Shown: piece by piece, positions 1-23,209 of the stretch
How positions within the stretch are numbered: the first letter of the stretch is position 1
Layout of the letters: every line of letters starts with the position of its first letter
From: Armatimonadota bacterium
GTDB lineage: Bacteria; Armatimonadota; Fervidibacteria; Fervidibacterales; Thermosaccharophagaceae
Direction of reading: 5' to 3'
NCBI GenBank assembly: GCA_025062195.1
Contig: JANXAS010000012.1
Span: forward strand, 3,237-67,236
DNA length: 64,000 nucleotides
Program-made: the position numbers and the translations under genes
The notes under the pieces: generated by a model
What the model was told of the DNA's origin: nothing
The model's input: only the letters and a program-made list of their open reading frames with translations
Databases searched by the model: none

Positions 1-11
1 TTACACGCATC

Positions 12-1631
12 ATGGTTGAGAAGGTGAAGCGCAATCAGGAACTTTATCCAATATACATTGATGTGACGAAGCGAGCACTCGTCATCGGCGGCGGGATAGC
101 TGGTATCCAAGCTGCGTTAGACATTGCAGATGGCGGATATGATGTTGTGCTTGTTGAGCGGGAGCCATCAATAGGTGGACACATGGCACAGCTCTCTGAG
201 ACATTCCCAACCCTTGATTGCTCGCAATGCATCCTCACGCCAAAGATGGTTCAGGTTCGCCAACACCAGAAGATCAAGCTTTACACATATTCAGTTGTTG
301 AAGATGTGCGTGGCTATATAGGCAATTTTGAAGTGACGATCAGGAAGAAGGCTCGTTCGGTTCGTGAGGATTTGTGCACTGGTTGCGGGCTTTGCATGCA
401 ACGATGCCCGGCAAGACGAGATGGCATACCAAGCGAGTTTGATAGAGGGCTTGGGACTCGCCCCGCAATTTATACTCCATTTCCCCAGGCGGTCCCAAAT
501 GTGCCGGTTATTGACCGCGAGCATTGTCGCTACTTCACTGAGGGCAAATGCAGAGTGTGTGAAAGGGTGTGTCCGGTAAAGGCGATTGATTACGAACAGC
601 AAGACGAATTCGTCACGGAGAGGGTTGGAGCCATCATTGTAGCGACCGGATATGAGCTTATCTCACCGTCTCTTTATGGGGAATATGGCAGTGGCAGGTT
701 CAAGGATGTAATTGACGGTCTTCAATTTGAGCGCCTGCTGAGTGCCTCGGGGCCAACTGGCGGAAAGGTGTTGCGCCCATCAGACGGCAAGGAAGCCAAA
801 GTCGTAGTCTTTATAGCGTGTGTCGGCTCAAGGGATAGGGCGAAGGGAATACCATACTGCTCAAAGATATGCTGCATGTATATTGCGAAGCACGCCCTGT
901 TGTTCAAGCATAGAGTGCACGATGGTGAGAGCTATGTGTTTTACATGGACATAAGGGCTGGTGGGAAAGGCTATGATGAATTCGTGCGCAGAGCGATTGA
1001 GGAAGAGGGCGCATGCTATATACGAGGCAGAGTTTCAAGGATTTATGAGAGCAACGGAAAGCTCATAGTCAAGGGGATGGATACCCTTAGCGGAAAATTG
1101 ATTGAGGTTGAAGCCGATATAGTTGTGCTCGCAACCGCTATGCGCCCCTCGGATGGGTTTGAGGAACTTGCACGCAAGCTGCGCATCCCGTATGACGAAT
1201 ATGGTTTCTTCAGCGAGGCACATCCGAAGCTACGCCCGGTTGAAACAACCACAGCCGGAGTTTTCCTTGCCGGTGCATGCCAAGCACCAAAAGATATCCC
1301 CGAATCAGTAGCACAGGCAAGCGCTGCAGCATCAAAGGTCCTTGGCATATTTGGCGCACCGAGAATTGAGCGCGAACCGACAATTGCAGTAGTTAACGAG
1401 ACGACTTGCACAGGCTGCTTTGACTGTGAAAGGGTCTGCCCATACAACGCTGTTGAGCGCAAGGAGATAAGAGACAGGCGCGGCAACTTGATAAAAGTGG
1501 TTTCATCGGTTAATCCCGGGCTGTGCGAAGGCTGCGGTGCATGCGTTGCAGCGTGCCGAAACAAAAGCGTTGACCTGCGCGGCTTCAGTGACGAACAAAT
1601 TTTTGCACAGCTCTCCGCAATCGCCATCTGA
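12..1631 (+). CDS. hdrA: HdrA-like FAD-dependent oxidoreductase with 4Fe-4S ferredoxin domains (heterodisulfide reductase subunit A family)
   Basis: The N-terminal dinucleotide fold is VIGGGIAGIQAALDIADGGYDVVLVE, followed by SIGGHMAQL and TLDCSQCILTPKM, which is typical of HdrA. There are several CxxCxxCxxxCP ferredoxin motifs (CTGCGLCMQRCP, CRVCERVCP, CTGCFDCERVCP, CEGCGACVAAC). The frame stays open to the left window edge, so the true start may lie upstream. Confidence 0.8.
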   Translation: MVEKVKRNQELYPIYIDVTKRALVIGGGIAGIQAALDIADGGYDVVLVEREPSIGGHMAQLSETFPTLDCSQCILTPKMVQVRQHQKIKLYTYSVVEDVRGYIGNFEVTIRKKARSVREDLCTGCGLCMQRCPARRDGIPSEFDRGLGTRPAIYTPFPQAVPNVPVIDREHCRYFTEGKCRVCERVCPVKAIDYEQQDEFVTERVGAIIVATGYELISPSLYGEYGSGRFKDVIDGLQFERLLSASGPTGGKVLRPSDGKEAKVVVFIACVGSRDRAKGIPYCSKICCMYIAKHALLFKHRVHDGESYVFYMDIRAGGKGYDEFVRRAIEEEGACYIRGRVSRIYESNGKLIVKGMDTLSGKLIEVEADIVVLATAMRPSDGFEELARKLRIPYDEYGFFSEAHPKLRPVETTTAGVFLAGACQAPKDIPESVAQASAAASKVLGIFGAPRIEREPTIAVVNETTCTGCFDCERVCPYNAVERKEIRDRRGNLIKVVSSVNPGLCEGCGACVAACRNKSVDLRGFSDEQIFAQLSAIAI

Positions 1632-2014
1632 GAGGAAGACCTAAGCCACAGCAATAAGCAATACCCGTTAGTAAATCCCGAGGTGAAGGGATAGCATTGT
1701 GCAAATCGGCTCGCCAACGGAAGGCGTAGGAAGGAGGGTGCGGTGGAGAGAGTATGGGGCGACCTTCTTGAAAACCGATTTATCGGCATCCACCTCCCTC
1801 TTGGTAACACCGGACAACGGATTTAACGATTCAATGCTTCATCTTCCTGAAGCTATTAGCGAGGCTGCTTCAAAAGGCTCCTCAATCACTTAACCACCAA
1901 TTCGCAACAGGCTTCGCTGATCTTCACGCCGATGCCAATGCGCTTCAATTAAAAGCAAGCCACCATGGCTTTATCGTGATTGTCTCAACATCTGTTGTTT
2001 TGCCTTCCCATCGT

Positions 2015-2509
2015 TCAAAACTTCTCCCAGTGGATGACTTCTTTTAGCTTCCGCTTGGATATTCTTCCCGGCTGCTCAGCTGGATAACCGATCGGTATTA
2101 AGCTCACGAGTTTATATCCGCTTGGGACACCGAGCAACTCAGCAATGCGATTTGCGTATGGCTTTTTATCACCGGCTACCCAGCATGCGCCCAGACCATG
2201 TGCGTGCGCTGCAAGCAATATGTTCTGTGTTGCTGCGCTGCCATCCTCAAGGTAATACTTAACATCCTTACAAAACACGGCTACGCAAACTGGCGCTTGC
2301 GCTATGAACTTGCCATAATCCGTTTCATCAGCTATGCGCTTCCTCATCTGTGCATCAGTGACAATTACAAACTCCCAAGGCTGGTAGTTCAGAGCTGTTG
2401 GGGCAAGTCTTGCGCAATCAATGATGTCCTCAATTATCTCCCTTGGGATTGGGTCGGACTTGAATGACCTTATGCTGCGACGGCTCTTCATGGCTTCAAT
2501 TGCATCCAT
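2015..2509 (-). CDS. Nitroreductase family protein
   Basis: The N-terminus is RRSIRSFKSDPIPRE, followed by APTALNYQPWEF. The ~160-aa length and these motifs are typical of the NADH/FMN nitroreductase fold. Confidence 0.85.
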   Translation of the reverse strand: MDAIEAMKSRRSIRSFKSDPIPREIIEDIIDCARLAPTALNYQPWEFVIVTDAQMRKRIADETDYGKFIAQAPVCVAVFCKDVKYYLEDGSAATQNILLAAHAHGLGACWVAGDKKPYANRIAELLGVPSGYKLVSLIPIGYPAEQPGRISKRKLKEVIHWEKF

Positions 2510-2608
2510 TGCCTATCACCTCACCTTCTCATCCACCTCATCAGATTAATTTGATGCCCCAAAATCTTAGCCTCTTATCATCACCTAAATGTCAGCAGCA
2601 TAAATTGC

Positions 2609-3196
2609 CTATTGTGTGCGCATGCGCTGCAGCTGCCCCATGACATCCCTAAGTATGTCCCTTGCCTCATTAAGCTTTTGCTGCGCACTCTCTTGCTGTC
2701 CCAGTTGCGATAATAGCTCCTTAACCTCATCAAGGAGCGCTACAGCCTTTGATAACTGTTCGGCGTGCTTAGGTTCTGGGACAATCTCTCTGGCGAGGTT
2801 AATCCAAGGGCGGGCTGATTCAAGGTATTCAATGACTTGGTGCGGTGTGTAAAGTTCGGGGTCAAAGCTAAAGCTGGCGTAGGTTAAATCCCGCCTCGCC
2901 GGCGAGAGCAGCTGCCATGCAGCGTGTGCCAATTCCGATCTGTGGTGGGAAATTTGCCCAGACAACCGTTTCACTTCGTTCGCTGTAATACGCAAGCGTG
3001 TTACCAGCAACCCATTTAACACCAATGATAACAGCGCTATGAGCCATCCTATAATGGCAAATACTCTTACATGCGACGGTTGTTGAACCTGAGCCGTTTG
3101 TGGTGTTACGCTCTCTTGAGCTTCACCGCTGTTCAATCCAGTATTGCTACCATCGGAGTTAGCTTGCCCTCCGAGGGTGTTCCCTTCTTGAGCCAT
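2609..3196 (-). CDS. Hypothetical single-pass membrane protein with a low-complexity N-terminus and a helical C-terminus
   Basis: A GGAGGTG Shine-Dalgarno site lies 5-6 nt upstream of the ATG. There is one hydrophobic helix (VFAIIGWLIALLSLVLNGLLV). I recognise no family. Confidence 0.55.
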   Translation of the reverse strand: MAQEGNTLGGQANSDGSNTGLNSGEAQESVTPQTAQVQQPSHVRVFAIIGWLIALLSLVLNGLLVTRLRITANEVKRLSGQISHHRSELAHAAWQLLSPARRDLTYASFSFDPELYTPHQVIEYLESARPWINLAREIVPEPKHAEQLSKAVALLDEVKELLSQLGQQESAQQKLNEARDILRDVMGQLQRMRTQ

Positions 3197-3211
3197 GTTC
3201 TCACCTCCGAG

Positions 3212-3991
3212 TCATTTGCCTTGCGCCGGCTTAAGCGGCTTTGTGCTAACAAGCATTCTGTCACCCTCAATCACGACGCTCCTGATGATGGGATCAAATA
3301 TCATGTCATCTGGTTTGAGGAGCGGATTGAGTCTTCCCTCAAGCCGCCTTTGAAGCCACTCTGGCACCGGCACAGCATTGAAGTAAAGCTCGCTGAAGCG
3401 CACATGCACCGAACCATCTTGAGCCGGTAAAAATTTCCCGACAGCTCTAAACGGATTGTTGATGCCGAAGAGTGTCCAACGCCCAGTCAACTCAACTTGA
3501 TTGTCATCACGAAACTTCACCTTGATGTTCATGTTCTTCGTGTATTTGCCCTCGGCAAAGATTTGCTCAAAGCTTTGCGGCGTAAAAATAGCATCGCAAT
3601 GCGACTCTTTAACTGAGAGCACAACTAACTTGTCATCCTCAACGAGCATCTTCGCATCCACTACTGGTTCAATCACGAGCGCCTCAAACTTGAGCAAATT
3701 CACGGTCTTGATTCTGACTGGGCTACTACGAATCTCAACGAGTTGAAACTTACCCTTCGCAGTTTCCTCTTGGCTTGGTGATTGAACAATCTTTATATGC
3801 AGCGCTTTAGGATCAACCGGGTTTGAAATGCGCTTGCGAAGGTGCTGTTCAAGAGCAGCTACAACCTTAGCAGCTGTGAATTTATCATCCTGTTCATATG
3901 CGAATCCGATGAACAAGACAGGAGTGAACATACACCATGTGAGGATGATCGCCACGCATATAGCTTCACTGGAATAGGCGTTTAACTTCAT
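3212..3991 (-). CDS. Hypothetical membrane-anchored or secreted protein, possibly DUF2993/LmeA-like
   Basis: I moved the start to the internal ATG (MKLNAYS...) because a GGAGGTG site lies inside the longer ORF, just upstream of that ATG. There is an N-terminal hydrophobic anchor. The C-terminal part loosely resembles LmeA/DUF2993 proteins; that resemblance is from recollection only. Confidence 0.5.
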   Translation of the reverse strand: MKLNAYSSEAICVAIILTWCMFTPVLFIGFAYEQDDKFTAAKVVAALEQHLRKRISNPVDPKALHIKIVQSPSQEETAKGKFQLVEIRSSPVRIKTVNLLKFEALVIEPVVDAKMLVEDDKLVVLSVKESHCDAIFTPQSFEQIFAEGKYTKNMNIKVKFRDDNQVELTGRWTLFGINNPFRAVGKFLPAQDGSVHVRFSELYFNAVPVPEWLQRRLEGRLNPLLKPDDMIFDPIIRSVVIEGDRMLVSTKPLKPAQGK

Positions 3992-4678
3992 TTCATCACA
4001 CCTCCGCACATGCCATTATGTCAGAGTTGAGATGTCATATCAAGCAACACATCTCACTTCAGCATGTTCGCCAATTATAGACAACACATCCTTGATTCGG
4101 TTACTGTTAGCGAAGCCTTATTCACCGAATTAACTTGAATGGGGCGCCAAGGCTGAATCAGTAAAAGCTGTCGCTATTTTGCTCAGGAGTTTGCTTGTGC
4201 TCAGTATACCACTTTCAAAAATTAAGGTGATATCTAACCCATGCAGCGTTGTGGCTTGCTCAAAGGCGGTCGTTTAAATTTCGCCGGCAACTATGACTTG
4301 AAGTCCATAGCATGGTTGCGAAATGTGTTTGCCAGCAACATTTGCAGCGAAGAGCGCAAGCCATTTCCCGCAAAAGCCATTGAGTTAAGCCATTGGTGGG
4401 GTTGAAGTTGGAGCACCTTGCATACTTTGGGGCGATAACTTAACTATGAGGGCACTTTGGAGTTTGTTTTGGGAGATGTAATTCTCCAAATGGCTCTTTA
4501 ATAGTGTGTCTTTTGGTGCACCATCAACCTTCTTCTCATTGGCTTGCAAGAATTGCCCTTCGCATGCGCTACCAATCTCACTTTAGGTGGCTTAAAAGAG
4601 CCACCATACAAAGCGCTGACAACCTTACCTTGGCAAACCAATTTTGACCAATGAGGTTTGCGCCTGACTGCACTCCGC

Positions 4679-5953
4679 TCATACAGCCTTTTTAGCCAGT
4701 TCAGCCTGACACGCAACAGCCATGCCCGGATAGCTCACTCCCCAAAGCCCTTCAACAAACCCATCTTGTATTTCACGCCATTGAGATAACACTTGTTCAA
4801 CAACGCTACTTGCAAGTTGTCTCATCTCAGTTTCTGACACATCGCCGTAGTATTCAATGTTGACTGCTTGCGGGTCGGTGATTGGGTGCCCAATTTGACT
4901 GACCATGTAGCAATAGACCTGCCTGAGTTGCGGCTGTGCTTCAACAAGCCTGTTTGCGATCAGCTGAGCCATCACTTGATAAATCTTGCCGACATGTGAC
5001 ACCGGATTTTTGCCAGCTGCAGCTTCAAGGCTCATCGGGCGATACGGTGTTATCAAGCCGTTGATCCTGTTACCTCTGCCAACTTGCCCATCGTCGCCGC
5101 ATTCAGCACTTGTTCCAGTGACGGTGATATAAATGGTGTCACCTTCGTCGGCTGTATTCAGTTCAATCTCAACCTCATACTCCACTGGGAATTTGATCAA
5201 GCAATTCTCGCACAGGTGTTGTTTAAGCTTTTCCTTCACCACCTCTTTTAACTCGTAGTATTCTCTCACCGACCTCACATACCGGTCGATGAATGCAGCA
5301 GCTATTGTCAGCCTGATACGCCTGCCTGTTCTCACACCCATAACTTTTATGTCCTCGCCGATAGCTGGCAACTCAACTCTCAATGCCGGTGAGTTGAGAA
5401 ACATCTCCGCTTCCTTAACGAGTTGCTCAGTTACAGAGAGAGGCGCAAATGCAACTGCAAGTGATGTGTCATTTGCTCTCGGGACATCACAGCCCATGTC
5501 ATAGTTGGCAATCAAATCCTCGCTGCCTCGCTTTATCCTGTAATCAACCATTAGGGCGCCTGGTATAGGCAGATTTGGAAGTTGCCTTTGGAACCAATTC
5601 TGGATTCCTTGAAGCACCATCTTTCCAATTGGCACGCGCCAAATTTCGTTCTGAGAGCCACGCCACTCAAGCGTTGCTCTGCCGACAAGCAGCACATAAA
5701 TTGGCTCTTCAATTGCTCCGCCACCAAGCTGTGGTGATGAGCGTCCCCCGGCGAGAACACACTTGTCCACATTGTGATGAAGTATACGCCCCGTGTGCTC
5801 GCGATAGAACAAACATAACATCCTGCTGAGCTCCTCTGCCGCACCATCGCACAGAGTATCAGGATGACCTTTTCCCTTGCGCTCAACTATCTCCATCGGC
5901 ATGTCATCAACGACCACATTTCTTCCAAGGTTCACCCTCAGGTGCATCTGCAT
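4679..5953 (-). CDS. metK: S-adenosylmethionine synthetase, archaeal type (methionine adenosyltransferase)
   Basis: The N-terminal motif [17 protein letters not shown] and the overall ~400-aa layout match the archaeal MAT family rather than bacterial MetK. A SAM-I riboswitch lies upstream. The start could be the second ATG at 5947. Confidence 0.88.
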
Positions 5954-6269
5954 TACCCCCCGCTAATGGCTTTTAAGAATAAATCGGATTTGTATCCATA
6001 GCTGCTGGGGCATATCCGTGAGTCGCCGGGGCATATCTGCACAATGCACAGCTTCAATACAGTAGGGAGGCGGTTTGACGATTGAGAAATGTGAACGCCT
6101 TCATGTGGCTAACTCACTTTCCCACAAACTGCTATGCCCATGTCCCGCCTCCCCATCTTCAGTCCCGTTACAATGATTGCAAACGCCCCCATTACGACTC
6201 GGAAGCGCCCCTTATGGAGAGGAGCGGGACCTGGGCATTGGCATAACATTTGCCACCTGCGGTATCCCA

Positions 6270-6422
6270 CTCCTCTCATCTCTTGCCCTTGGAAGTTTCA
6301 CATCCACTCCAAGGACTCAACGCATTTGGCACCTTGCCGATGACATGCAGCTACCTATGCCATCGGTAGGTTGCCGGGCTTCATCGGGCGCGTGACCCTC
6401 CACCGCTCGTGATGAGAGGAGG
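6270..6422 (-). promoter_or_regulatory. SAM-I (S-box) riboswitch aptamer
   Basis: The minus strand reads CTCCTCTCATCACGAGCGGTGGAGGGTCACGCGCCCGATGAAGCCCGGCAACC...GGCAAGGTGCCAAATGCG...CAAGAGATGAGAGGAG. The hallmark blocks are present (UCAUCxxGAG, GGUGGAGGG, GCCCGAUGAAGCCCGGCAACC, GGUGCCAA), and a closing P1 helix forms between CTCCTCTCATC and GATGAGAGGAG. It lies on the same strand as the SAM synthetase gene and upstream of it. Confidence 0.8.
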
Positions 6423-6730
6423 GGCGCCTCAACAACATCTTGACCTTACTTCAAAACTCAAAACTACATTCCCAACTTACCGTCATTCATTCAAGCATAG
6501 ATTATGCCGCGCATCATCAAATCGTCAACCACGAACGATGTTCATGCTGCAGGTGTAATCAATGAGAGAGCATCTTTAAAAACACGCTGCTATTTACCGC
6601 GTGGTAGTTGCGCAGTTAGCGTTGTTTTCGTAGTGGCGAACTACAGCTCAACAAAAACAGCGACAAAAACAAATGATGTGGGTGGCTCACTAACTGCCCA
6701 TATCCAACTGCGTAACTTCCAACTGCAAAT

Positions 6731-6759
6731 GTTGTTGGGAAAACATATTTCCCAACAAC
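6731..6759. other. Perfect 12-bp inverted repeat (hairpin) GTTGTTGGGAAA-acata-TTTCCCAACAAC
   Basis: Read directly from the sequence. It sits inside the 2.6-kb non-coding region, and no flanking T-run is obvious. Confidence 0.9.
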
Positions 6760-7199
6760 GCTACAGGCTAATACCGAATCAGGTTTTCAACCACCTTCGT
6801 TTTCTATCTCATCCAATGCACCGCGAACCAGTTGCTGATCCGATAACCAACGCACACATTCTGTATTTGATGCTCACCTTCCCAACATGGTATCTGAAGC
6901 AACGATTTTTATAACCTGTAGTCACTGACGAAATTTCTGAGCGCTGTTTTTAGACATCAGAAAAGTTACTCACCACTGGCTTCCACCGCTCCAATGATTG
7001 AGCACTAACCTTGTAAGAGCTTTCAATAATGAGTTTGGCTCTCATTTATTTCGTTAGAGACCACTGTCTGAAAAGCCAGTGGCATGGACAGCTAACGCCA
7101 TTTTCAAAAACCAAGGTAAAACACAACCTATATAGTGTTGGTGCTCATCTGCCATGGTCGTTTAAACCCCGTCTTGGAAGCCAACGGCATGTATGGCTA

Positions 7200-8470
7200 A
7201 GCACCAAAAAACTCCTGAGCAAAGAGCTGAAGCGCTGACAGATAATCAGTTTCACTTTCTGCACTACCAAGTCAAGTTCAATGTTGAGTGCAAGGCTCTG
7301 AATTCAAAGTTCGCTTTTGAAGGTAAGGCTACCGCCAAGCTGAAAAATGAGTGCGGGGTGCAAAGCACAAAGCTCGTTTTCTTGGGGCGAGGCTACTGCT
7401 GAGCCGAAAATGGTCACAAGACGCAAAGTTAAAAGCTCTACCATTTCAAGAAATCAAAGTAACGCGACCGCCTTTTGAATCACAAAACAAAAACTCTCAT
7501 TATGTAGCATCGTCCCTTGTGGGCAACGAAATTTAAATGACCGTCTCGGACAACCCTTGATGCTACATAGGTTGGATGTCACCTTGACTTTTGATGGTAT
7601 TCATTTCCGCAGGGTAAGGCTGCTGCCGAGCCGAAAATTTGCATGCCATATAGTGGCAGGAAAAGCCTGTCCGAAAATTCGGCAAGCCAGTTGGCTTGCC
7701 CTAAGAAATGGGAAAAATCACGACGGGAAATTCTTAGGGTGAGGCTGCTGCCGAGCCAAAAATTGAGAAGGTCAGAAAATGGGCAAGTTGGCGGATCGGA
7801 AGATAGGCAATGAATGATTCACAGCGCCTTTTGCTACAAACTTTTTTAGTGCTTGATTATCCATGCCACTGGCTTTAGCCATTGGTTGATGACGGGAATT
7901 CATTATTCATTCGGCGAGAATTTTCCTCGCCGTTTAAAGACGACGCTCAGAGAATTCGTCAGCTACTATGGGCTAAAGCCCATAGCATAGTTTGAAGAAG
8001 CGTTCACCAAAAACATTTGAGGCAAAGGGCAAACGAAAAAATTCAGACGCTCTTTACCACGAGCTTTGTTGCTTAGGTTTGTAGTTAGCCACGAAGCGAT
8101 AGCAAAGTGGCGTCAAAAATCCGTTTAAGTTCTTGGTCAGCCACCAAGCAAAGCGCGTCATAAGTTGTTCCTTGTTCCTTGTTCCGTTTTTTGACGGCAC
8201 TCCGCTTTGCTCCGTGCCTTATACAGCCTAATGGGAGGGCGAGGTTCCCGCCGAGCTAAAATTTTTCAGCAAAGAAAAAATTCGTAAGGGAAGGCTACTG
8301 CCCTGCCGAAAAATCAAAACGAAAAATTGGCAAGCCAATAGGCTTGCCCTACGAGGACAAAACGAAAATTCTCGGCATGCCAATGATGTGCCATCCAAGA
8401 GGACGGAAAATCGGAGGGCGATGTTGCCGCCGAGATCAAAATCAGGAAGGTCAACTGGCACATAGTTTTG
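7200..8470. repeat. Cluster of dispersed short intergenic repeat modules (mosaic of GC-rich hairpin motifs)
   Basis: There are multiple imperfect copies of motifs such as GGGCGAGGCTACTGCTGAGCCGAAAA, AGGGTAAGGCTGCTGCCGAGCCGAAAA, GGGAGGGCGAGGTTCCCGCCGAGCTAAAA, GGCAAGCCA(nn)TGGCTTGCC, CCATGCCACTGGCTTTAGCCATTGG and TATGGGCTAAAGCCCATAGC. Spacing and orientation are irregular. Confidence 0.85.
7825..8228 (+). repeat. Composite ~400-nt repeat element, copy 1
   Basis: It aligns by eye along its whole length with 20225-20625. The shared order is CCATGCCACTGGCTTTAGCCATTGGTTGATGACG, GAATTCATTCGGCGA, GAGAATTCGTCA, GGCTAAAGCCCATAGCA, GCGTTCACCAAAAACATTTGAGGCAAAGGGCAAACGAAAAAA, CTCTTTACCACGAGCTTTGTTGCTTAGGTT, GTAGTTAGCCACGAAGCGATAGC, TTGACGGCAC, GTGCCTTA. 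Confidence 0.85.
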
Positions 8471-8570
8471 TCTTTACATCTACAAGCTGGTGCACTAAAC
8501 TTGCTTAAGTTAGGCACTGCCTTAGCCAAGAGCATAAACAAGAGACAAGATTTGAAAGGATGAACAAGCT

Positions 8571-10376
8571 ATGGCACTAAAAGTTGAGATTGGTAAACCT
8601 GCAGAGTTTAGCAGTTGGGATGAACGATCCCTCTCGGATGAGGAAGTGGAGCAGTTTTTGACTTCACAGCGAATTTTTGAATGGCATATACCTAACCCTA
8701 TTGCTGCGGAATGCCGTATCCCATCAAACGAGGCACACCTGTTGTTACTTATGGCTGAACAACTTCGCTGCATGCAATCCTTTGAAGAATTACAGTGCTG
8801 GAACCAAGTGCGCATTTCCCGCTTCCCACACCAGATTGAAACAGCTTTGAAAGTGTTGAACGAGATGAATGGGTGTGCCTTACTCGCTGATGATGTTGGA
8901 TTGGGCAAAACAATTGAAGCAGGCTTGGTGATGAAAGAACTCATTGTTAGAGGGCTTGTTAAAAGCGTGCTCATATTGGTGCCAGCATCGCTAACTCATC
9001 AGTGGTGTCACGAGATGTTTGAGAAGTTTGGGGAGAGGTTCTTTATAGCCAGCCGGGAAAACGACTGGCTATCTTATGAGCGCATAATAGGTTCAATTGA
9101 CTTGGCAAAGCGTGAACCACACAGAAGCGCCATACTTAGACGCCAGTTTGACCTGCTCATTGTTGATGAAGCCCACAAATTAAGGAACAGGCTGACCCTT
9201 GCTCATCGCTTTTGCCAAAAGATACAAAAGCGCTATGTCCTGCTCCTAACTGCTACTCCGATCCAAAACAATTTATTTGAACTTTACAACCTTGTGACCC
9301 TGATAAAGCCTGGGCAACTTGGAACATTGCGAAATTTCAAAAGGAGATATGTCCTATCCGATGACCCGAAAAAGCCAAAGAATGTCGGGGAGTTGCGTCG
9401 GTTGCTCTCATCGGTAATGATAAGACATCACAGAGATGAAGTTGGAATAACCCTCCCACCAAGATATGTGACGACGCATTACATCTTGCTTACACCTCCA
9501 GAGTTTCGCCTTTATGAGGAGATGACGATGTTCTTAAGACAGAGCTACAAGCGATTTTGCGGGGCATCCGGTAAGGAAAGACACATGCGATTGACGCTAA
9601 TATTGCTCCAAAAAGAGCTCTGTAGCACGCCTCAAGCAGTAGCAGGAACATTGCTTAAGATGGCGGGAGACGATTACCCTGGCGAATTAAGGGAAAAGAT
9701 AGCCGAATTTTTCGAGCTCGCAAGGACAATACCATTGTGCGCAAAAATTGAGCACATTAAACAACTTTTGAGCGCACTCGGTGAGAAGGTGCTCATATTT
9801 ACAGATTACATTGCCAGCATGAAAGCGATAAAAAGAGCGCTTGAAGAGCATGGACATGAAGTCGTCCTATATCACGGTGGCATGAGCGAAAAGGCTAAAG
9901 ATAGGGCTATTGAAAGGTTTAAGGAGAGTGCTGGGGTGATGATAAGCACAGAGTCGGGTGCTGAGGGACGAAATCTGCAGTTCTGTAGGGTGGTGATTAA
10001 CTTTGATCTGCCTTGGAATCCCATGCGTCTTGAGCAGCGCATTGGGCGTGTCCATAGGTTAGGACAAGATAAACCTGTGTTTGTTATAAATTTGGCGACA
10101 GAGCAAACTGTTGAGGAACACATAATTGAGGTTTTGATAACAAAGATAGGGTTGTTTGAGTTAACCGTTGGCGAACTTGAGTTAATGCTCGGTATATCAC
10201 ACCTTGAAGAGGGCATTGAACGGCTCGTTGCAGAGGCAATTATGCAAAGCGAAACACCTGAAGAGGAAAAGGAACGCCTAAGACAAGTTGGAAAACTGCT
10301 GCAACGAGCTGTGGAACGCTACGAGCGAGTGAGACAGGCAAACCAAATGTTCTGGGAACTCATAAAACAGCACTGA
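8571..10376 (+). CDS. SNF2-family (Swi2/Snf2, RapA/Rad54-like) DEAD/H-box ATPase
   Basis: Motif I is LLADDVGLGKTIEAG, motif II is LLIVDEAHKLRN and motif III is LLLTATPIQNNLFELYNL. The C-terminal helicase lobe has STESGAEGRNLQ, NFDLPWNPMRLEQRIGRVHRLGQ. The protein is compact (601 aa) and has no obvious accessory domain. Confidence 0.9.
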   Translation: MALKVEIGKPAEFSSWDERSLSDEEVEQFLTSQRIFEWHIPNPIAAECRIPSNEAHLLLLMAEQLRCMQSFEELQCWNQVRISRFPHQIETALKVLNEMNGCALLADDVGLGKTIEAGLVMKELIVRGLVKSVLILVPASLTHQWCHEMFEKFGERFFIASRENDWLSYERIIGSIDLAKREPHRSAILRRQFDLLIVDEAHKLRNRLTLAHRFCQKIQKRYVLLLTATPIQNNLFELYNLVTLIKPGQLGTLRNFKRRYVLSDDPKKPKNVGELRRLLSSVMIRHHRDEVGITLPPRYVTTHYILLTPPEFRLYEEMTMFLRQSYKRFCGASGKERHMRLTLILLQKELCSTPQAVAGTLLKMAGDDYPGELREKIAEFFELARTIPLCAKIEHIKQLLSALGEKVLIFTDYIASMKAIKRALEEHGHEVVLYHGGMSEKAKDRAIERFKESAGVMISTESGAEGRNLQFCRVVINFDLPWNPMRLEQRIGRVHRLGQDKPVFVINLATEQTVEEHIIEVLITKIGLFELTVGELELMLGISHLEEGIERLVAEAIMQSETPEEEKERLRQVGKLLQRAVERYERVRQANQMFWELIKQH

Positions 10377-10489
10377 GTAACAGTTTGTGTATTTGCAGTC
10401 AGTCTGTAAGTGGCGCTAAACTTCGGTGGTTTAGGAGAGCCACGCTTCAGTTTAAAGTCACCTACTTTTAAGAGCGCAAAACCATTACG

Positions 10490-10637
10490 CTCTTTACTAC
10501 AAACTTGTTGGTCAGGCTCGCAGTTAGCCAAGAAGTGAAGTGTCGTTAAGTTGGTGCAAAGTGCGATGTTATCATTTTACTTGCACTTCACATTCACTTT
10601 GACGGCACCACATTTTGCTTGGTGCCTTACTGCGAAC
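10490..10637 (+). repeat. Intergenic repeat element (module A, subfamily 2) between the SNF2 gene and the Cys-rich gene
   Basis: The run CTCTTTACTACAAACTTGTTGG, GCAGTTAGCCAAGAAG, GGTGCAAAGTGCGATGTTATCATTTTACTTGCACTT, TTGACGGCACC, GGTGCCTTACTGCGAACC is collinear with 12953-13107 and 16174-16285. Confidence 0.85.
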
Positions 10638-10689
10638 CAACAAACTTTTGAGTAAAGAACGAACCATTGTATGGTGGGGAGTTAACGCG

Positions 10690-12597
10690 ATGCAATGGCA
10701 GCAAAGCTTTAGCATGTCATTTGGGAGTATAAAATCTGATGCCGTTGAAACATGGCTTCGCTCACTATGTTGTAGGTTCTTTGAATCCATTGGTGCCAAG
10801 GTGGACAAAAAAGGTAAATTGCTGCACATCAAATTACCTGAGGATTCACCGTTTGAATGGGATGGTAGCGAACTTATTGTTGGATTTGAAAAAGATGCCT
10901 GTGAAGCTGTTCAAGGCGCTTTGCTATTCACCCCCGGCAGCTTGCTGTTTCATCGCGTTCATGAATGGTTAAGAGAGCATGCATTGCACATTGCTGTTAA
11001 CTTGCCCGAGATTAAAAAGCCATCGGAACCTAAACTGCGTTTTGGAAATTGTGATTTGGTTTCAGTCAGAAGAAGGAAGGTCTGTCTGCGCGGTTTGCTT
11101 GTAAGCGTCGCGCTATCATGCATGCCGGCGTTTGAAAAGGCGATACTTAAGAAGTTCATGGTGCTTGAGAACGGCTTTGTTGCAGAAGTTACCGAGAAAG
11201 TGGACAGCATTCTCTCCGATGCTGAGCCCACTAAACCTTTATTCAGCCGCTCACTTTTCAGCAAACTTTTTGGATTGCTCACCGAGAAGTGTGAGAGCTT
11301 GCTTTCGGATTGGCTTTCGGAGCTGACTCAGATTGCAAAAGAGCGCTCAAAAGCTGAGCTTAAAAGAATAATCAACTACTACTCCAGCCTGCTCGGGGAA
11401 TTAGCCATCAAAGCAAGCAACAACAGCCAATTTCGGCATGAGATGGAGAAGTTAATTGCTGAGCGAGATGAGAGGCTAAGAGAGGAGTTACAAAGATATC
11501 AGCCCTTTGTCTCGGCTCAAGTTGTTGGCATCGCTGAGGTGAACATACCAGCAATTGAATTTAGGTTTACAGTCTCAAATGACTCGCTTCAACTATCGTT
11601 TCCCACTTATTGCAACCTTTATGATGGCACTTTCATGTTCGTAGCGTGTGCCAATTGTGGCTCTCAAACAAGTTATGTAAATCTTTGCACAAGTGGACAC
11701 ATAGCATGTAACGATTGCATTTTGAGTTGTTCAACCTGCGGCACGGAATACTGTAAAAGTTGCATCCGTAATTTTTGCGAACTTTGTAATTTACCTGTCT
11801 GTGACGAGTGCCTTTTAAATTGCGGGCTTTGCCACAGGAATGTTTGTAAGATACACAACATTGAATGTGAATTCTGTCGGAAAAAAGTTTGCAAAATATG
11901 CTCAATTGAATGCCACATATGTGGAAAGGGAGCCTGTTTTGATCACTCCATAAGTTGTGCTATCTGCAGCAGAGGAATCTGTAACGATTGCTTGCAACGG
12001 GGCATTAAAGAGATGCAAAAGTGCTTTGATTGCGGAGGGGTCATCTGCAATGACCATGCAATTTTGTGTTCAACTTGTGGGCGGGTAACTTGCACAAAAT
12101 GCAGAGCTGTTTGTTCAACTTGTGGTGGGATTATTTGCACAATGCACGCTTTTAAAGCCAATTGTTGTTCAATTATTCTGTGTAATAATCACTCCGTCAA
12201 TTGTCAATCATGCGGGAAAATAGCTTGTTTAGAACACATCGCGCAATGTGGTATTTGTGGCTCAATTGTCTGCCGCCTATGCAGCAACAGATGCATAATT
12301 TGTGAACAATACTACTGCGTTTCATGTTTGGGTAGAAAAACTGTGTGCAATTTGTGTATAAGGTTGCTTAATTCACCGGAGCGAAAATTGCCATCTTCTC
12401 TACTACCGCATCCGATGCCAAAACAGATTTTAAAGACAAGAAGTTGCCGATTTGTAGCCACAAAGTGTAGGTCGGTTTACCTATGGCGTGATGGATTGGA
12501 TGGATTACTTGTTGTTGCTGATGCTTCTGGAAAAATAATCTTCGCAAAACATCTTAACGCATTATGGCTTCTTCGCCATCTGAAGAAGTGGGGCTAA
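10690..12597 (+). CDS. Hypothetical protein: ~320-aa N-terminal domain with a coiled-coil segment, a ~237-aa tandem zinc-ribbon-like Cys array, and a ~75-aa C-terminal domain
   Basis: I moved the start to the ATG at 10690 (MQWQQSF...). A GGGGAG site precedes it, and the first 25 codons of the tracked ORF lie inside the repeat element. The Cys array is described under 11647-12357. I recognise no family. Confidence 0.75.
   Translation: MQWQQSFSMSFGSIKSDAVETWLRSLCCRFFESIGAKVDKKGKLLHIKLPEDSPFEWDGSELIVGFEKDACEAVQGALLFTPGSLLFHRVHEWLREHALHIAVNLPEIKKPSEPKLRFGNCDLVSVRRRKVCLRGLLVSVALSCMPAFEKAILKKFMVLENGFVAEVTEKVDSILSDAEPTKPLFSRSLFSKLFGLLTEKCESLLSDWLSELTQIAKERSKAELKRIINYYSSLLGELAIKASNNSQFRHEMEKLIAERDERLREELQRYQPFVSAQVVGIAEVNIPAIEFRFTVSNDSLQLSFPTYCNLYDGTFMFVACANCGSQTSYVNLCTSGHIACNDCILSCSTCGTEYCKSCIRNFCELCNLPVCDECLLNCGLCHRNVCKIHNIECEFCRKKVCKICSIECHICGKGACFDHSISCAICSRGICNDCLQRGIKEMQKCFDCGGVICNDHAILCSTCGRVTCTKCRAVCSTCGGIICTMHAFKANCCSIILCNNHSVNCQSCGKIACLEHIAQCGICGSIVCRLCSNRCIICEQYYCVSCLGRKTVCNLCIRLLNSPERKLPSSLLPHPMPKQILKTRSCRFVATKCRSVYLWRDGLDGLLVVADASGKIIFAKHLNALWLLRHLKKWG
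11647..12357 (+). repeat. In-frame tandem coding repeat: about 16 modules of ~14 aa (~42 nt) with the pattern C-x2-C-x4-C-x2-[C/H]-x3
   Basis: The translation reads CSTCGTEYCKSC IRNF CELCNLPVCDEC LLN CGLCHRNVCKIH NIE CEFCRKKVCKIC SIE CHICGKGACFDH SIS CAICSRGICNDC ... CGICGSIVCRLC SNR CIICEQYYCVSC. I counted 53 Cys in 237 residues, with His replacing the fourth ligand in six modules. Confidence 0.9.
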
Positions 12598-13400: not shown

Positions 13401-13703
13401 TTACAATGGCACAACGCTGGCTATAGAATCGCCCTCCTCAAGCACTAATAAGCGAGAACCCTTTGCGGTGCGCGATGCCGTTTTAATTTCCTCTAATTGC
13501 AGCCTAACTATGCGCCCTTGCGTTGTTGCAACAACAATCTCACCGCTCTCACCGACTGGCAATGCTGCAAGAAGTGCATCGCCCTCGGCGAGATTAACAC
13601 CAGAGACACCTTTTGCAGGGCGCTTTCGCACCCGCACCTCATCAATAGGCACTCGCTTTGCATACCCATTCTTTGTGACGACGAGCACATATTTCGCCTC
13701 CAT
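13401..13703 (-). CDS. Stand-alone DNA gyrase subunit A C-terminal repeat (beta-pinwheel blade) protein, two blades, 100 aa
   Basis: VVTKNGYAKRVPIDEVRVRKRPAKGVSGVNL and VATTQGRIVRLQLEEIKTASRTAKGSRLL match the GyrA/ParC C-terminal blade consensus (tkxGyiKRxxxxefrxqxRggkGv). A strong GGGGAGGTG Shine-Dalgarno site lies 6 nt upstream of the ATG, and a terminator lies downstream. Confidence 0.75.
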   Translation of the reverse strand: MEAKYVLVVTKNGYAKRVPIDEVRVRKRPAKGVSGVNLAEGDALLAALPVGESGEIVVATTQGRIVRLQLEEIKTASRTAKGSRLLVLEEGDSIASVVPL

Positions 13704-14678: not shown

Positions 14679-14899
14679 CTCTCACAACTCCCACATTATA
14701 AAATTCCGATTGGGCTAAAACTTCAACTTGGGTGGCTTTATCACAATCTTGTAGTTTTCCACACGGGGTAAAGCTCCCTCACCCACCGTGCTACTTTGCA
14801 GTTTAGCACGCTCATACAGTAAAGTTAACTTGTCTTGCCCGAACACTTGCCACGCACTTATGAGCATTCCCTCTTAGTTTGCACAATGCTTGGAACGAT

Positions 14900-16290
14900 A
14901 ATTGAATTGCTTGAAGAGGCATTGCTGCGAGACATAGAAACAACAGCCACAGCATCTGACCTCACAGAGATGATTTGAAAACGATGTTAAGAATTGTTGC
15001 GCAGTTGAATTTAGAGACAGCTTATAACTACCTCTGTCTTCCTTTTCGGCATCCGTCACTTACTCAAAAGCCGCAATAGCCACACAGTTGAATGCAAGAG
15101 CAGCTGCTAAGCCGCCTGCACTATTCGTTTTTGTATTTGTAAGTGCTTTTCGGATGGACTACCATCCACCCCTACGAAACAACGCCACCTGCGCAACTCA
15201 AAAGCCGTTATTAAACAGCACCAATGCCACCGGCTTAAGCCGTTGATAGATCACGCATAATGCCCTTAACTCGGAGATTTGTTAATGTCTAACCATCCAC
15301 GCCACCGGCTTAAACGGTTAGTAGTGACGAAAACAACGAACGCTGAATTCATTCGGCGTTTTTGCGCCATCTTATAAAGACGGCACCCAAAACCTCATCA
15401 GCGACTGCTGGCTAAAACTTGTATCGCAATTTGGAGATGTGCCCACCAGCAACATTTGAAGTAAAGAGCAACAAAAGTTGAGCACTGGATTCATTCGGCA
15501 AAACTTTTGTCTTCTGAAGAGGGCACTTCGTAGAAAATGGGCTCACAGTAATATTTGCTTTGCAATGCATCATCATAATGCTCTCATTACCGCTTCGGCG
15601 AGAAGCTGCAAGGGCACATGAAATACGCGCTAAATTCCTTTCGCCATTTAGAGACGGCGCTCATGAAAAAATCGTAAACGACACCCTAAGTGACTGCGGG
15701 CTAAGGTCCGTAGCATTGGTTGGATAAAGGCATTCACAAAAAGCTTTCGTGAGGATGAGGCTCTTGCCAAACCATCCGGCTCAGCAGGAAATTCATCATC
15801 CAATCCTGTTAGGGTGAGGTTCCCGCAAAAACTTTTGGCTCACAAAAAGATTAGCATCCCAATCTCGTTAGGATGAGGTTACGCAACCTTTTGCTCACAA
15901 AAATTCATCATCCAATCTTGTGAGGGTGAGGTTTCCGCAAATCTTTTGAGGGACAAGGCTCTGCCGAGCCAAAACAATATGCAACAGCATTTTGCAAAGG
16001 GGCGTTTGCGTTTCTCTGGCAACTATTGTTCATCTGTTCGTCCTTGCAAAACAACGCAACCCACATTAACTTCTTGTGACTTACGCACATGGCATTGCCT
16101 TGTAAGCAGGATGATAGCCTGCCAGAAAATCGCTGCAAAAATGAACAATGCAATTGGCGTAAATTTTAAACCGCTCTTTGCTGCAAACTTTGTTGGTTAG
16201 GTTCGTAGTTAGCCACAAAGCGAATGCGCAGTGGCGTTAAATTGGTGCATGCGCGATATCATCATACCTGCACTTTGCGCCCCTGCCATA
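14900..16290. repeat. Intergenic repeat cluster (1.6-kb non-coding region), including a module A subfamily-2 copy at 16174-16285
   Basis: The cluster contains diverged copies of the modules GCCACCGGCTTAAGCCG/GCCACCGGCTTAAACGG, GAATTCATTCGGCG, CATTTGAAGTAAAGAGCAAC, GGGCTAAGGTCCGTAGCA and GGCTCTGCCGAGCCAAAA. The run CTCTTTGCTGCAAACTTTGTTGGTTAGGTTCGTAGTTAGCCACAAAGCGAATGCGCAGTGGCGTTAAA is the module A copy. Confidence 0.8.
15789..15950 (+). repeat. Three tandem ~56-58-nt units
   Basis: The units read AAATTCATCATCCAATCCTGTTAGGGTGAGGTTCCCGCAAAAACTTTTGGCTCACAAAA / AGATTAGCATCCCAATCTCGTTAGGATGAGGTTACGCAACCTTTTGCTCACAAAA / ATTCATCATCCAATCTTGTGAGGGTGAGGTTTCCGCAAATCTTTTGAGGGAC. Confidence 0.85.
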
Positions 16291-16328
16291 GTTCCAATTT
16301 GCTTGCCACCGCACAATTGATTGAAACA

Positions 16329-19567: not shown

Positions 19568-19705
19568 CTCAACGACACATCAAGTGGGGGTGGCTTCAGC
19601 ACAGCATCTCGCTGCATTATTTACAATGCAAGCGCTTCCCACAACACTCATCGGGACAAATGTCACAGACAGCATCGTGCAATTGCGCGATACAGTGATA
19701 CAAAC

Positions 19706-19951
19706 TCACTCAACTACCTCCTTTTGCTCCTCGCCAACCTGTTGGGCACTCAAAATGCCTGACTGCTCACTTTGAGGCATCTCGGGAGCTGTGCTTGGCT
19801 TTGCAGTAGTAAGTTGGCGCACATGTTCTTCAAGGCTTGTAAGCATCCTCAAAATGCGCCATTCCAAGTAGACAGAGATGCACATCAATACGAGCATCAC
19901 GCATCCAAACAGGAAAGCCATGAGCCACAGAAAAGCAGCCAATACCTCCAT
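19706..19951 (-). CDS. Small hypothetical membrane protein (81 aa)
   Basis: A GGAGGTG Shine-Dalgarno site lies 7 nt upstream of the ATG. There is one strong transmembrane helix (LAAFLWLMAFLFGCVMLVLMCISVYL). I recognise no family. Confidence 0.5.
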   Translation of the reverse strand: MEVLAAFLWLMAFLFGCVMLVLMCISVYLEWRILRMLTSLEEHVRQLTTAKPSTAPEMPQSEQSGILSAQQVGEEQKEVVE

Positions 19952-20224
19952 CCGTGCACACCTCCAATTGCAAGCTATTCAGCTAAAACAGACTTTGCCA
20001 CAGCTTGGCATGTGAAGCAATCGCATAGCTGTGGATGATTGTAGGGTTAAGGAAAGGATGAAACTTGGATGGCTCTCGCAAGCCACTGTAATTCATCTTC
20101 GCTCTTCACCACAAACGTTGTTGGCGGTAACTTCCCCTAAGCATGCTATTGACTATAGCCCATAGCTGATGATGGACTTTATGAGCATTGTCTTCGGACA
20201 GTGGAACTCGCCGAAATTTACAAT

Positions 20225-20625: not shown

Positions 20626-20694
20626 ACAAAATTTGAAGAAAAATTCGGCAAGTGGTGCGGCGCAATTAGATGCTCTGTATCTGCTCCCTTCATC

Positions 20695-23108: not shown

Positions 23109-23209
23109 CACCCCCCAAATGATGCATTCAGTCCGGCAACTCACACCGAAAGCGATGATACCACATGTGTTCGTCCCGTGATAGCATTCGGAACAGAGGT
23201 GAGCATAGC

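Follow-up and report, generated by a model that had tools for sequence, protein, structure and literature searches.

A Swi2/Snf2 motor gene paired with a YqhG-like, cysteine-array gene: a probable two-subunit translocase of RapA/BrxHII type

Escherichia coli RapA (HepA) is the RNA-polymerase-recycling Swi2/Snf2 ATPase. It carries its motor, Spacer and CTD on one polypeptide, together with a tandem Tudor N-terminal domain. The C-terminal layout described for RapA and BrxHII consists of two alpha+beta domains, the second of which has a coiled-coil insert (PMC12839542). BrxHII, which has a RapA-like architecture (PMC12839542), is a single polypeptide of ~940 aa encoded inside a six-gene defence operon. 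In Bacillus, yqhG adjoins a SNF2 gene, yqhH (PMC6123443; PMC10054049), and knocking out yqhH renders B. thuringiensis sensitive to UV and lowers its UV survival.

The gene pair considered here (Table 1) lies in a 64,000-nucleotide stretch of DNA from an Armatimonadota MAG, referred to here as the window. The pair resembles RapA in having a motor of the same Swi2/Snf2 type and in preserving the order of motor, alpha+beta domain and alpha+beta domain with coiled-coil insert. In contrast with RapA, these parts are divided between two polypeptides, a tandem Tudor domain is not evident (the N-terminal 80 aa of the SNF2 protein lay outside the modelling), a predicted poly-zinc array and a C-terminal domain are added, and the split pair also occurs in archaea. 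Similarly, it differs from BrxHII in being split, in having the array and in lying outside a BREX context. The domain assignments, the split architecture and the strict pairing of the two genes in both bacteria and archaea are observed features of the locus and its relatives, and the pair is, in our judgement, probably a two-subunit Swi2/Snf2 translocase of RapA/BrxHII type with a housekeeping role, in which the zinc array serves as an arm.

Table 1. Positions of the two genes and of their parts within the window.
Feature	Position	Strand	Description or basis
SNF2 gene	8571..10376	+	compact Swi2/Snf2 ATPase, 601 aa; ORF
Spacer between SNF2 and partner genes	10377..10689		313 bp
Partner gene	10690..12597	+	putative accessory subunit, 635 aa from ATG 10690
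N-terminal YqhG-like domain, aa 1-317	10690..11640	+	AF2 model, Foldseek, hhalign, homolog L086
Predicted poly-zinc array, aa 320-556	11647..12357	+	Cys/His knuckle pattern
C-terminal tail, aa 557-635	12358..12594	+	linker then small beta-rich domain; conserved

In agreement with the sequence-only reading, the first ORF encodes a SNF2 protein of 601 aa in which both SNF2-rel_dom (residues 100-355, E 6e-37, 127.7 bits against a cut-off of 24.9) and Helicase_C (residues 392-498, E 3e-26, 92.1 bits against a cut-off of 23.5) were found. Membership of the Swi2/Snf2 group was thus indicated by scores above the Pfam gathering values for both lobes. By BLASTP, the protein aligned with residues 151-635 only of E. 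coli RapA, with 35-36% identity across both RecA lobes, and its core is followed by nothing more than a helical tail of ~65 aa, so that the earlier description of a SNF2 protein free of accessory domains was a fair one. The score against the RapA equivalog model (NCBIfam NF003426) was 193.1 bits, in two partial stretches, as opposed to the cut-off of 576, and scores were likewise far under the curated NCBIfam cut-offs for DrmD, DpdE, ZorD and RapA. The RapA architecture was absent from the window SNF2 protein itself, the Spacer/CTD-like module being found in the next gene. Gene 1 is predicted to be the motor subunit, with a RapA/BrxHII-like core that lacks C-terminal accessory domains.

The partner ORF opens upstream of its ATG, at TTG 10615; the product counted from the ATG is identical to the deposited protein P0001, in line with the ~635-aa, same-strand protein previously described. 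No model in Pfam, NCBIfam or PADLOC names this protein, and a Pfam search with it gave no match at E<=0.1. The family nevertheless comprises 682 cluster representatives at E<=1e-3, and its architecture (N-domain, array and tail) is constant.

The N-terminal domain had been called unrecognisable, a description that no longer applies given its AF2 model, the Foldseek match of that model to RapA and the above-threshold match of a homolog to the Pfam YqhG model. The AF2 model (pLDDT 84.6) comprised an alpha-beta-beta-beta-alpha-beta subdomain at aa ~16-104 and a beta-sheet subdomain with long inserted coiled-coil helices at aa ~122-309, and the order of secondary structures agreed with the published description of the RapA/BrxHII C-terminal domains. 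In a Foldseek search of the PDB, only RapA was significant (four entries, E 7e-8 to 1e-7) and the next match was at E 0.2; the TM-score was low (0.34, rmsd ~9 A) and the aligned RapA residues were not reported by the tool. The match is assigned to the C-terminus of RapA because other SF2 helicases would also have been picked up had the RecA lobes been matched, and because of the hhalign comparison with the RapA C-terminal profile (E 7.5e-4, probability only 25%, 230 columns), which was collinear with RapA ~711-966, the part absent from the 601-aa motor. With respect to YqhG, homolog L086, which aligned end to end with the window partner (BLASTP E 3e-39), scored 43.8 bits against the Pfam model (cut-off 25) over model positions 5-246 of 258, while homolog P0131 scored 24.5 bits against the same cut-off, homolog P0135 gave a collinear partial match and the window partner itself gave none. 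By transitive homology, then, the N-domain is taken to be a divergent YqhG domain (Pfam PF11079), and as modelled it resembles the C-terminal accessory module of RapA. Such identities would make the pair a split helicase of RapA/BrxHII type, and not a motor to which an unrelated metal-binding partner had been added.

The arrangement also resembles that of Bacillus YqhH/YqhG, with which it was compared by description, in that a compact SNF2 gene stands beside a YqhG-domain gene. It differs in that the Pfam YqhG model, at 258 positions, describes a stand-alone domain without Cys array or C-terminal tail, and in that the window partner has diverged too far to match that model.

The sequence-only reading gave the length of the array correctly as 237 aa and slightly overcounted its modules, at about 16; the strict CxxC-x4-Cxx[C/H] pattern occurred in 13 units. 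The array counts 53 Cys and 9 His, arranged as 28 Cxx[C/H] knuckles whose starts alternate at spacings of 7 and 8 residues, and this regularity predicts about 14-15 four-ligand (tetrahedral) metal sites. The repeat is a 15-residue C-x2-C-x4-C-x2-[C/H]-x3 unit that can recur up to about 30 times, and no tandem repeat was found at the DNA level in the array coding sequence. Among four homologs of ~60% identity all array Cys were invariant while intervening residues varied, and short beta-hairpins were predicted (pLDDT 63-85 for aa 330-410). From the invariant, regularly spaced Cys/His ligands we infer that the array binds zinc.

Tandem Cys/His metal-binding modules attached to a helicase are also found in ZNFX1. 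The likeness of the array to eukaryotic NFX1/ZNFX1 and RBR/B-box proteins, which is one of analogy only, extends to tandem Cys/His modules and to faint resemblances in sequence or fold to TRIP4/ASC-1, FYVE, B-box and RBR domains; the PDB sequence matches were weak, and all were with zinc domains of the cross-braced or treble-clef kind (TRIP4/ASC-1, FYVE, B-box/RING). The window repeat differs in being a distinct 15-residue unit, and none of the known zinc-ribbon or zinc-finger Pfam families (DZR, zf-NF-X1, zf-B_box, zf-C2HC5, etc.) matched it at E<=0.1. When 29 homologs were compared with Pfam zinc families, only the Siva Cys-rich region was found (E 0.002, 2/29). A SWIM-zinc-finger partner of the YwqA/YwqB type was set aside, SWIM (PF04434) being found neither in the partner nor in the 29 homologs.

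Of 75 genome loci whose upstream DNA was readable, 62 had a SNF2 gene of the same subfamily directly upstream of the partner homolog (60 same-strand loci plus L012 and L122 after frame-overlap correction), and 12 of the 75 lacked an adjacent SNF2 gene. The paired loci come from about ten bacterial phyla, from DPANN archaea and from two euryarchaeal lineages. The earlier proposal of a conserved, uncharacterised two-gene module, including the co-occurrence of Cys-array homologs with this SNF2 clade that had been suggested as a check, was thus borne out; the module is uncharacterised in the literature and libraries searched, and adjacency of the YqhG/YqhH type is a property of the window as well as of the 62 loci. 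The same arrangement was noted in L001-L006, L008 and L009, with the SNF2 stop and the partner start abutting in L008 and overlapping in L009. The spacer in the window is long compared with the 19-54 bp seen in relatives, and no convincing terminator or promoter was found in it. In Caldilineaceae both genes are present but unlinked, and in DPANN archaea the family is widespread in very small genomes, beside, for example, a prolyl-tRNA-synthetase-like gene.

The pair had also been described as isolated by the largest, repeat-filled gaps of the window. This was correct for the upstream gap (5954-8570, 2617 bp), which is the largest and contains dispersed repeats as well as the SAM riboswitch of the neighbouring metK (6273-6418, minus strand), but not for the 803-bp downstream gap, in which no repeats were found and which is smaller than those at 14679-16328 and 19568-20694. 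The neighbours of the pair are metK, a GyrA_C-like gene and an NTP transferase; the flanks consist of housekeeping genes that are syntenic across related genomes, and a search of 96 loci for a recurrent third gene found none. The context of the pair is chromosomal and non-mobile. As identities for the pair, BREX BrxHII was rejected, the operon with BrxC, PglX/BrxXI methyltransferase and PglZ being absent and a lone BrxC-like ATPase lying 10.6 kb away, as was DISARM DrmD, for which the SNF2 protein scored 254.7 and 246.8 bits against cut-offs of 610 or 950 and drmA/B/C and methyltransferase neighbours were lacking.

Several observations would fit a DNA-repair or recombination motor of the Rad54/Rad5 kind, acting directly on damaged DNA or branched intermediates and not via RNA polymerase. 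Thus, the best solved-structure sequence match of the SNF2 protein was the Rad54-like Sulfolobus SSO1653 (1z63, E 1e-40), followed by RapA (E 3e-39); UV survival is lower in the B. thuringiensis yqhH knockout; the pair comes immediately after uvrB-uvrA-uvrC in L008 and has uvrC nearby in L095; and the alpha-beta-beta-beta-alpha-beta order seen in the partner's first subdomain is restriction-endonuclease-like. However, uvr adjacency was noted in only 2 of about 100 loci, the N-domain alignment contained no conserved acidic or lysine catalytic residues (only columns G35 and F66 were invariant), and the sole structural relatives were RapA proteins, which act on RNA polymerase. Direct action of this kind is accordingly considered unlikely.

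A lower probability still is given to the anti-phage or anti-plasmid role allowed for in the sequence-only reading, in which the pair would be a minimal relative of type 3 BREX BrxHII or DISARM DrmD with an array that senses foreign nucleic acid. The best PADLOC matches of the SNF2 protein were indeed to BrxHI/BrxHII (E 8e-76) and DrmD (E 1e-73), a BrxC/PglY-like ATPase is encoded 10.6 kb downstream in the window and 4-8 kb downstream in relatives, most of the array is replaced by another C-terminal region in some Ktedonobacterales partners, and BrxHII, too, has RapA-type accessory domains (PMC12839542). Against these observations, every defence equivalog cut-off was missed widely, the adjacent genes include no methyltransferase, no PglZ and nothing else of BREX or DISARM, and the lone BrxC-like ATPase is separated from the pair by unrelated genes on the other strand. 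PADLOC matches among 29 partner homologs were single or double, scattered (best E 0.002) and never recurrent, and no family member was found in 2.9 million viral contigs with a pattern that recovers the partner family in genomes. The syntenic housekeeping flanks, the lack of a recurrent third gene or PADLOC match and the lack of viral copies disfavour defence, as does the spread of the family in very small DPANN genomes.

Least probable of all is that the array, with its high Cys content, senses redox state or metals, or stores metal, and so turns the motor on or off during oxidative or metal stress, after the manner of the reversible thiol and zinc switches known in other regulators such as Hsp33 and RsrA. 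The 7/8 spacing is regular, each ligand is strictly conserved and the knuckles are predicted to be beta-hairpins, all of which suggests that the metal sites are structural, and a range of 11 to 61 knuckles between lineages is hard to square with a tuned sensor.

As a two-subunit RapA/BrxHII-type translocase, the pair would work as follows. Gene 1 would supply an ATP-driven DNA motor, and gene 2 would supply, in a second polypeptide, the accessory module found in RapA fused to the C-terminus of the motor, namely a degenerate restriction-endonuclease-like alpha+beta domain and an alpha+beta domain with a long coiled-coil insert, together corresponding to the Pfam YqhG domain. This module would be extended by a stiff rod, built here from about 14-15 zinc (Cys3-4/His0-1) knuckle pairs and varying widely in length between lineages, and then by the small conserved C-terminal domain. 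The YqhG-like module may dock both to the motor and to a target bound to DNA, which the RapA analogy suggests is most likely an RNA polymerase that has stalled or come to the end of transcription, so that the pull of the motor on duplex DNA would dislodge or remodel the target. The function probably lies in removing or remodelling complexes bound to DNA, RNA polymerase among them, and the role would be a housekeeping one, in transcription or in transcription-repair conflicts, rather than phage defence. The UV sensitivity of the yqhH knockout and the place of the pair after uvrB-uvrA-uvrC in L008 count in favour of this reading too. The rod may act as a spacer arm that keeps the C-terminal domain a fixed distance away, or as an extended surface for protein contacts. 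A general nucleic-acid clamp appears less likely, and the net charge, which is near neutral in most arrays compared, argues somewhat against it.

A broader proposal, that bacteria and archaea share in the pair a universal two-subunit equivalent of RapA, one that removes RNA polymerase when it has stalled or after termination or else links transcription with repair, with the poly-zinc rod as a new, length-tunable structural arm, is put forward as tentative and rather doubtful. A target identical to that of RapA is made less credible by the fact that the same module serves both domains of life although archaeal and bacterial RNA polymerases differ. If the proposal holds, DPANN and some euryarchaea would gain a Swi2/Snf2 polymerase-removal factor, so far unrecognised in archaea, and the rod would be a molecular ruler of 11 to about 60 metal knuckles.

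The fold of the partner tail, of 79 aa, was predicted with low confidence only, and no similarity to the N-terminal Tudor domains of RapA was detected in the tail. It carries the motif W-R...(hydrophobic)VV.D..G..(I/V) and is basic (+11) in the window clade.

The pairing of an SNF2 gene (the motor) with a downstream Cys-array gene (the partner), which had been proposed from the sequence alone, proved to be real and deeply conserved. Three close homologs of the partner shared one chromosomal neighbourhood, each being encoded directly 3' of an SNF2 gene for a 601-aa product, with archaeal-type metK upstream and genes for a 100-aa GyrA_C-like protein and an NTP-transferase downstream, and the arrangement seen in the window was also noted for a 70%-identical SNF2 of 'Candidatus Fervidibacterota'. 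When 1.84 billion cluster representatives were scanned in full with a four-sequence partner profile (HMMER), 682 proteins passed E<=1e-3, of which 53 also passed E<=1e-30; the best-scoring ones shared a plan of a ~300-aa N-domain, a Cys array (10-44 CxxC) and a short tail. A word-indexed search with the N-domain profile gave just 2 proteins. The window derives from an Armatimonadota metagenome-assembled genome, and a deposited protein, P0001 ('MAG: hypothetical protein RMK18_07560 [Armatimonadota bacterium]'), was identical to its second ORF. Two family members with only ~20% identity to the window N-domain, P0275 and P0246, both had an SNF2 gene ahead of them. The SNF2 stop and partner start codons abutted at one locus (L008) and overlapped at another (L009).

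Wider sampling relied on a degenerate pattern at the DNA level, modelled on the conserved array start (C-x2-C-x9-C-x2-GH-x2-C-x2-C-x3-C-x2-C), with 1 match in the window versus 0 expected by chance, which was scanned through one genome per GTDB species and matched at least 120 loci. Among the matches listed, HMMs built for this analysis indicated a family member in 96 of 120 loci, 60 of which had an SNF2 of the same subfamily as immediate upstream, same-strand neighbour; at two more (L012 and L122) an upstream SNF2 appeared after overlapping stop-to-stop frames were resolved. With the 21 family loci that lacked upstream DNA left unscored, the upstream-adjacent SNF2 was present in 62 of 75 informative loci and absent from 12 among the matches listed. 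Pairs were found in Planctomycetota, Chloroflexota, Gemmatimonadota, Eisenbacteria, Bacillota, Sericytochromatia, one proteobacterial MAG, UBP9 and Armatimonadota-like lineages and, among archaea, in many Woese-, Pace- and Nanoarchaeota, one Methanobacteriota MAG and one Methanomassiliicoccales MAG. Both genes were present but unlinked in Caldilineaceae, where the 807-aa neighbour of SNF2 (L007) was rejected as a family member as it has no Cys array. The pairing is ancient. No SNF2-partner fusion was found among 120 SNF2 homologs, a search in which P0013 turned out to be an internally duplicated sequence.

Coordinates of the pair, its neighbours in the window and selected loci of relatives
Feature	Sequence	Coordinates	Strand	Details
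metK	window	4679-5953	-	archaeal-type S-adenosylmethionine synthetase (PF01941, E 7e-139) in a bacterial genome
SAM-I riboswitch	window	6273-6418	-	Rfam RF00162, 53.4 bits; bacterial, precedes archaeal-type metK
Dispersed repeat	window	7310-8440 and 33429-33582		~21-38 nt; core GGGYGAGGCTRCTGCCGAGCC
SNF2 motor gene	window	8571-10376	+	601 aa; Pfam SNF2-rel_dom E 6e-37, Helicase_C E 3e-26
Spacer between motor and partner genes	window	10377-10689		313 bp versus 19-54 bp in L001, L003 and L005
Partner ORF	window	10615-12597	+	TTG opening; ATG 10690 gives 635 aa, also the NCBI call
GyrA_C-like gene	window	13401-13703	-	stand-alone 100-aa protein; two GyrA C-terminal beta-propeller blades (PF03989, E 2e-28)
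BrxC/PglY-like ATPase gene	window	23165-26989	+	1274 aa; Pfam DUF6079
Variant partner, SNF2 adjacent	L029 (Ktedonobacterales/Chloroflexia)	277-2613	-	
Variant partner, SNF2 adjacent	L034 (Ktedonobacterales/Chloroflexia)	2338-4602	-	
Variant partner, SNF2 adjacent	L044 (Ktedonobacterales/Chloroflexia)	1544-3814	+	
Stop-to-stop ORF with SNF2, beside partner	L010 (Thermoguttaceae MAG)	846-5240	+	1465 codons; SNF2 core at codons ~919-1449, ~900 codons ahead of core
uvrB, uvrA, uvrC and pair	L008 (low-GC, probably DPANN contig)	1-5754		uvr genes immediately upstream of the pair, same strand

The N-terminal domain of the partner, regarded as unrecognisable in the sequence-only reading, appears to be YqhG, as judged by transitive homology. 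Sub-threshold, collinear Pfam matches to PF11079 ('Bacterial protein YqhG of unknown function') were obtained for members of the family (P0131, 24.5 bits for a cut-off of 25, model positions 119-250; P0135, model positions 5-141), and the partner at L086, a Firmicutes MAG locus with an adjacent SNF2, matched above threshold (43.8 bits, E 2e-11, positions 5-246 of 258). The window partner in turn aligned end to end with the L086 partner (residues 23-559, E 3e-39). In Bacillus, yqhG adjoins yqhH, an SNF2-family helicase gene (PMC6123443, PMC10054049), and this adjacency together with the homology argues that the window pair is probably a distant, elaborated version of yqhH-yqhG. Literature searches on PF11079, YqhG and SNF2 with cysteine-rich partners yielded no description of the partner family or of the pair, which is taken to be kin to the RapA/BrxHII-type Swi2/Snf2 helicases.

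Resemblance of the predicted N-domain to RapA was evident from a confident AlphaFold2 model of residues 1-317 (16-sequence alignment, pLDDT 84.6). In a Foldseek search of the PDB, this model matched four E. coli RapA entries over ~290 columns (E 7e-8 to 1e-7, probability 1.0), the next match having an E of 0.2, and no SF2 helicase other than RapA was matched. Two of the four entries lack the RapA N-terminal domain; the match must therefore involve the post-motor, RapA-specific regions. Profile-profile comparison of the N-domain with a RapA C-terminal profile (641-968; E. coli, Proteus, Aeromonas and Acinetobacter) gave 230 collinear columns at E 7.5e-4 and probability 25%, N-domain positions 4-270 aligning with profile positions 76-331 (RapA residues ~711-966). 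This alignment was taken as corroboration of the matched region rather than as independent proof; hhalign against a single RapA sequence was not significant (probability 1.8%, pointing to RapA 878-923) and improved only with the 4-sequence profile. A 2026 comparative study describes the post-motor domains of RapA and BrxHII, the second of which is confined to these helicases (PMC12839542). In agreement with that description, the elements of the N-domain model were ordered as an alpha-beta-beta-beta-alpha-beta unit and then beta strands, the last hairpins being preceded by an insertion of long helices (187-269).

The 601-aa SNF2 aligned only with RapA residues 151-635 and has no room for post-motor domains. 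Given the likeness of the N-domain to these domains, the simplest reading sees in the pair a helicase of RapA/BrxHII type whose motor and accessory parts are separate subunits that would form a complex. Split two-subunit RapA-like helicases would then occur in several archaeal lineages, the genome-reduced DPANN among them, and in at least 10 bacterial phyla. YqhG, a Pfam family of unknown function, would gain a structural identity as a detached RapA-type accessory module, which would explain the constant company of yqhG with an SNF2 gene.

The array (partner residues 320-556, 237 aa) contained 53 Cys, 9 His and 28 Cxx[C/H] knuckles, the start-to-start spacing of which alternated between 7 and 8 residues to give a 15-residue unit, C-x2-C-x4-C-x2-[C/H]-x3. 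No DNA-level tandem repeat was found in the window array, which is therefore old and diverged. Among four homologs of ~60% identity, all array Cys were invariant, intervening residues varied and indels were absent, a pattern that probably marks structural metal ligands. The array matched no Pfam, NCBIfam or PADLOC model, and only weak sequence echoes of cross-braced or treble-clef zinc domains were noted (TRIP4/ASC-1 at E 0.006, FYVE, B-box/RING and TFIIH p44). A low-confidence AF2 model of the whole protein (4 input sequences, pLDDT 46.6) placed one short beta-hairpin in each 15-residue unit, with pLDDT 63-85 for residues 330-410; a fold search with this model gave no significant match. The array would be a zinc-binding rod. 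Across the family the number of its knuckles ran from 11 (114 aa, DPANN) to 61 (553 aa) and its net charge from +19 to -86, most members being near neutral, which is mild evidence for a structural arm or protein-contact surface rather than a general polyanion clamp. Even taken alone, a poly-zinc array of such variable length would be unusual among protein elements, and it is a candidate rigid spacer or scaffold. The C-terminal tail was conserved across the family and carried the motif W-R...VV.D..G..V; the idea that this tail is a displaced RapA Tudor domain was rejected (hhalign E 0.38).

A role in defence, as suggested in the sequence-only reading, was not favoured, the genomic context of the pair being non-defence. 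The top-scoring PADLOC models for the motor were BrxHI/BrxHII and DrmD, yet its scores fell below every curated equivalog cut-off examined, namely those for DrmD (255 versus 610 bits), DpdE (207 versus 500), RapA (193 versus 576) and ZorD (111 versus 1500). The flanks of the pair were metabolic genes, syntenic across related genomes, and clustering of flanking ORFs from the 96 family loci among the matches listed revealed no gene recurring across phyla, the largest cluster being a prolyl-tRNA-synthetase-like gene in DPANN. PADLOC matches of 29 partner homologs were no more than scattered singles or doubles (best E 0.002), and the array-start pattern found two chance matches and zero family members in 2.9 million viral contigs. 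A BrxC/PglY-like ATPase, matching PADLOC BrxC (E 4e-21) and SspC (E 3e-12) over its N-terminal ATPase part (~430 aa) only, was encoded downstream of the pair, at a distance of 10.6 kb in the window and of 4-8 kb in relatives, its relative position being kept in L001 and L005. Unrelated opposite-strand genes separated it from the pair, and no other BREX or Ssp gene was found near it. From the missed cut-offs, the syntenic metabolic flanks, the PADLOC and viral negatives and the lack of another BREX gene, a chromosomal, core-type function is therefore favoured; retention of the pair in small DPANN genomes likewise suggests a core function.

Hints toward a role in transcription or repair were thin. 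RapA takes RNA polymerase off DNA (PMC8501970 and related papers), and a yqhH knockout of B. thuringiensis is UV-sensitive. Linkage to uvrABC, as in L008, was rejected as a general trait of the pair, being noted at 2 loci only. The target would be RNA polymerase or another DNA-bound complex and, if it is the former, archaea would have in the pair a candidate factor for polymerase recycling or transcription-repair.

Several partners departed from the common plan. Those of L029, L034 and L044 kept only the first few Cys knuckles, after which came a different C-terminal region of ~350 aa that includes a long Ala/Glu-rich helical tail; the N-domain appears to bear an alternative effector end here. 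Bacillota/Clostridia partners (L017, L042, L077 and L120) had an extra Cys cluster in the N-domain, CCDLCPF..ICD....CCDFC.YY..C, a possible further metal or Fe-S site. In P0245 (616 aa, from the representative library), a degenerate N-lobe of SNF2 type (E 2e-20 against the SNF2 HMM) was fused ahead of the distal N-domain and array; no intact GxGKT Walker A motif was visible in its sequence, and this protein may represent a motor-partner gene fusion that has decayed.

The earlier description of the genes and array was accurate overall, with three exceptions. A strict count gave 13-15 modules rather than about 16; the downstream gap, described as repeat-filled and among the largest, was 803 bp, free of repeats and not among the two largest; and the 2.6-kb upstream gap, labelled non-coding, contained the SAM riboswitch of the adjoining metK. 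The core of the dispersed repeat had 5 matches in the window versus 0 expected, with palindromic GGCAAGCC...GGCTTGCC elements nearby, and the gap upstream of the SNF2 gene, longer by ~1.9 kb than in relatives (~740 bp in L001), owed most of this excess to the repeats. A promoter and terminator scan of the spacer between the paired genes was uninformative, revealing no recognisable element. The GyrA_C-like gene, convergent with the partner gene, was the downstream neighbour in all Armatimonadota/Fervidibacterota relatives, and in L005 the ends of these two genes overlapped.
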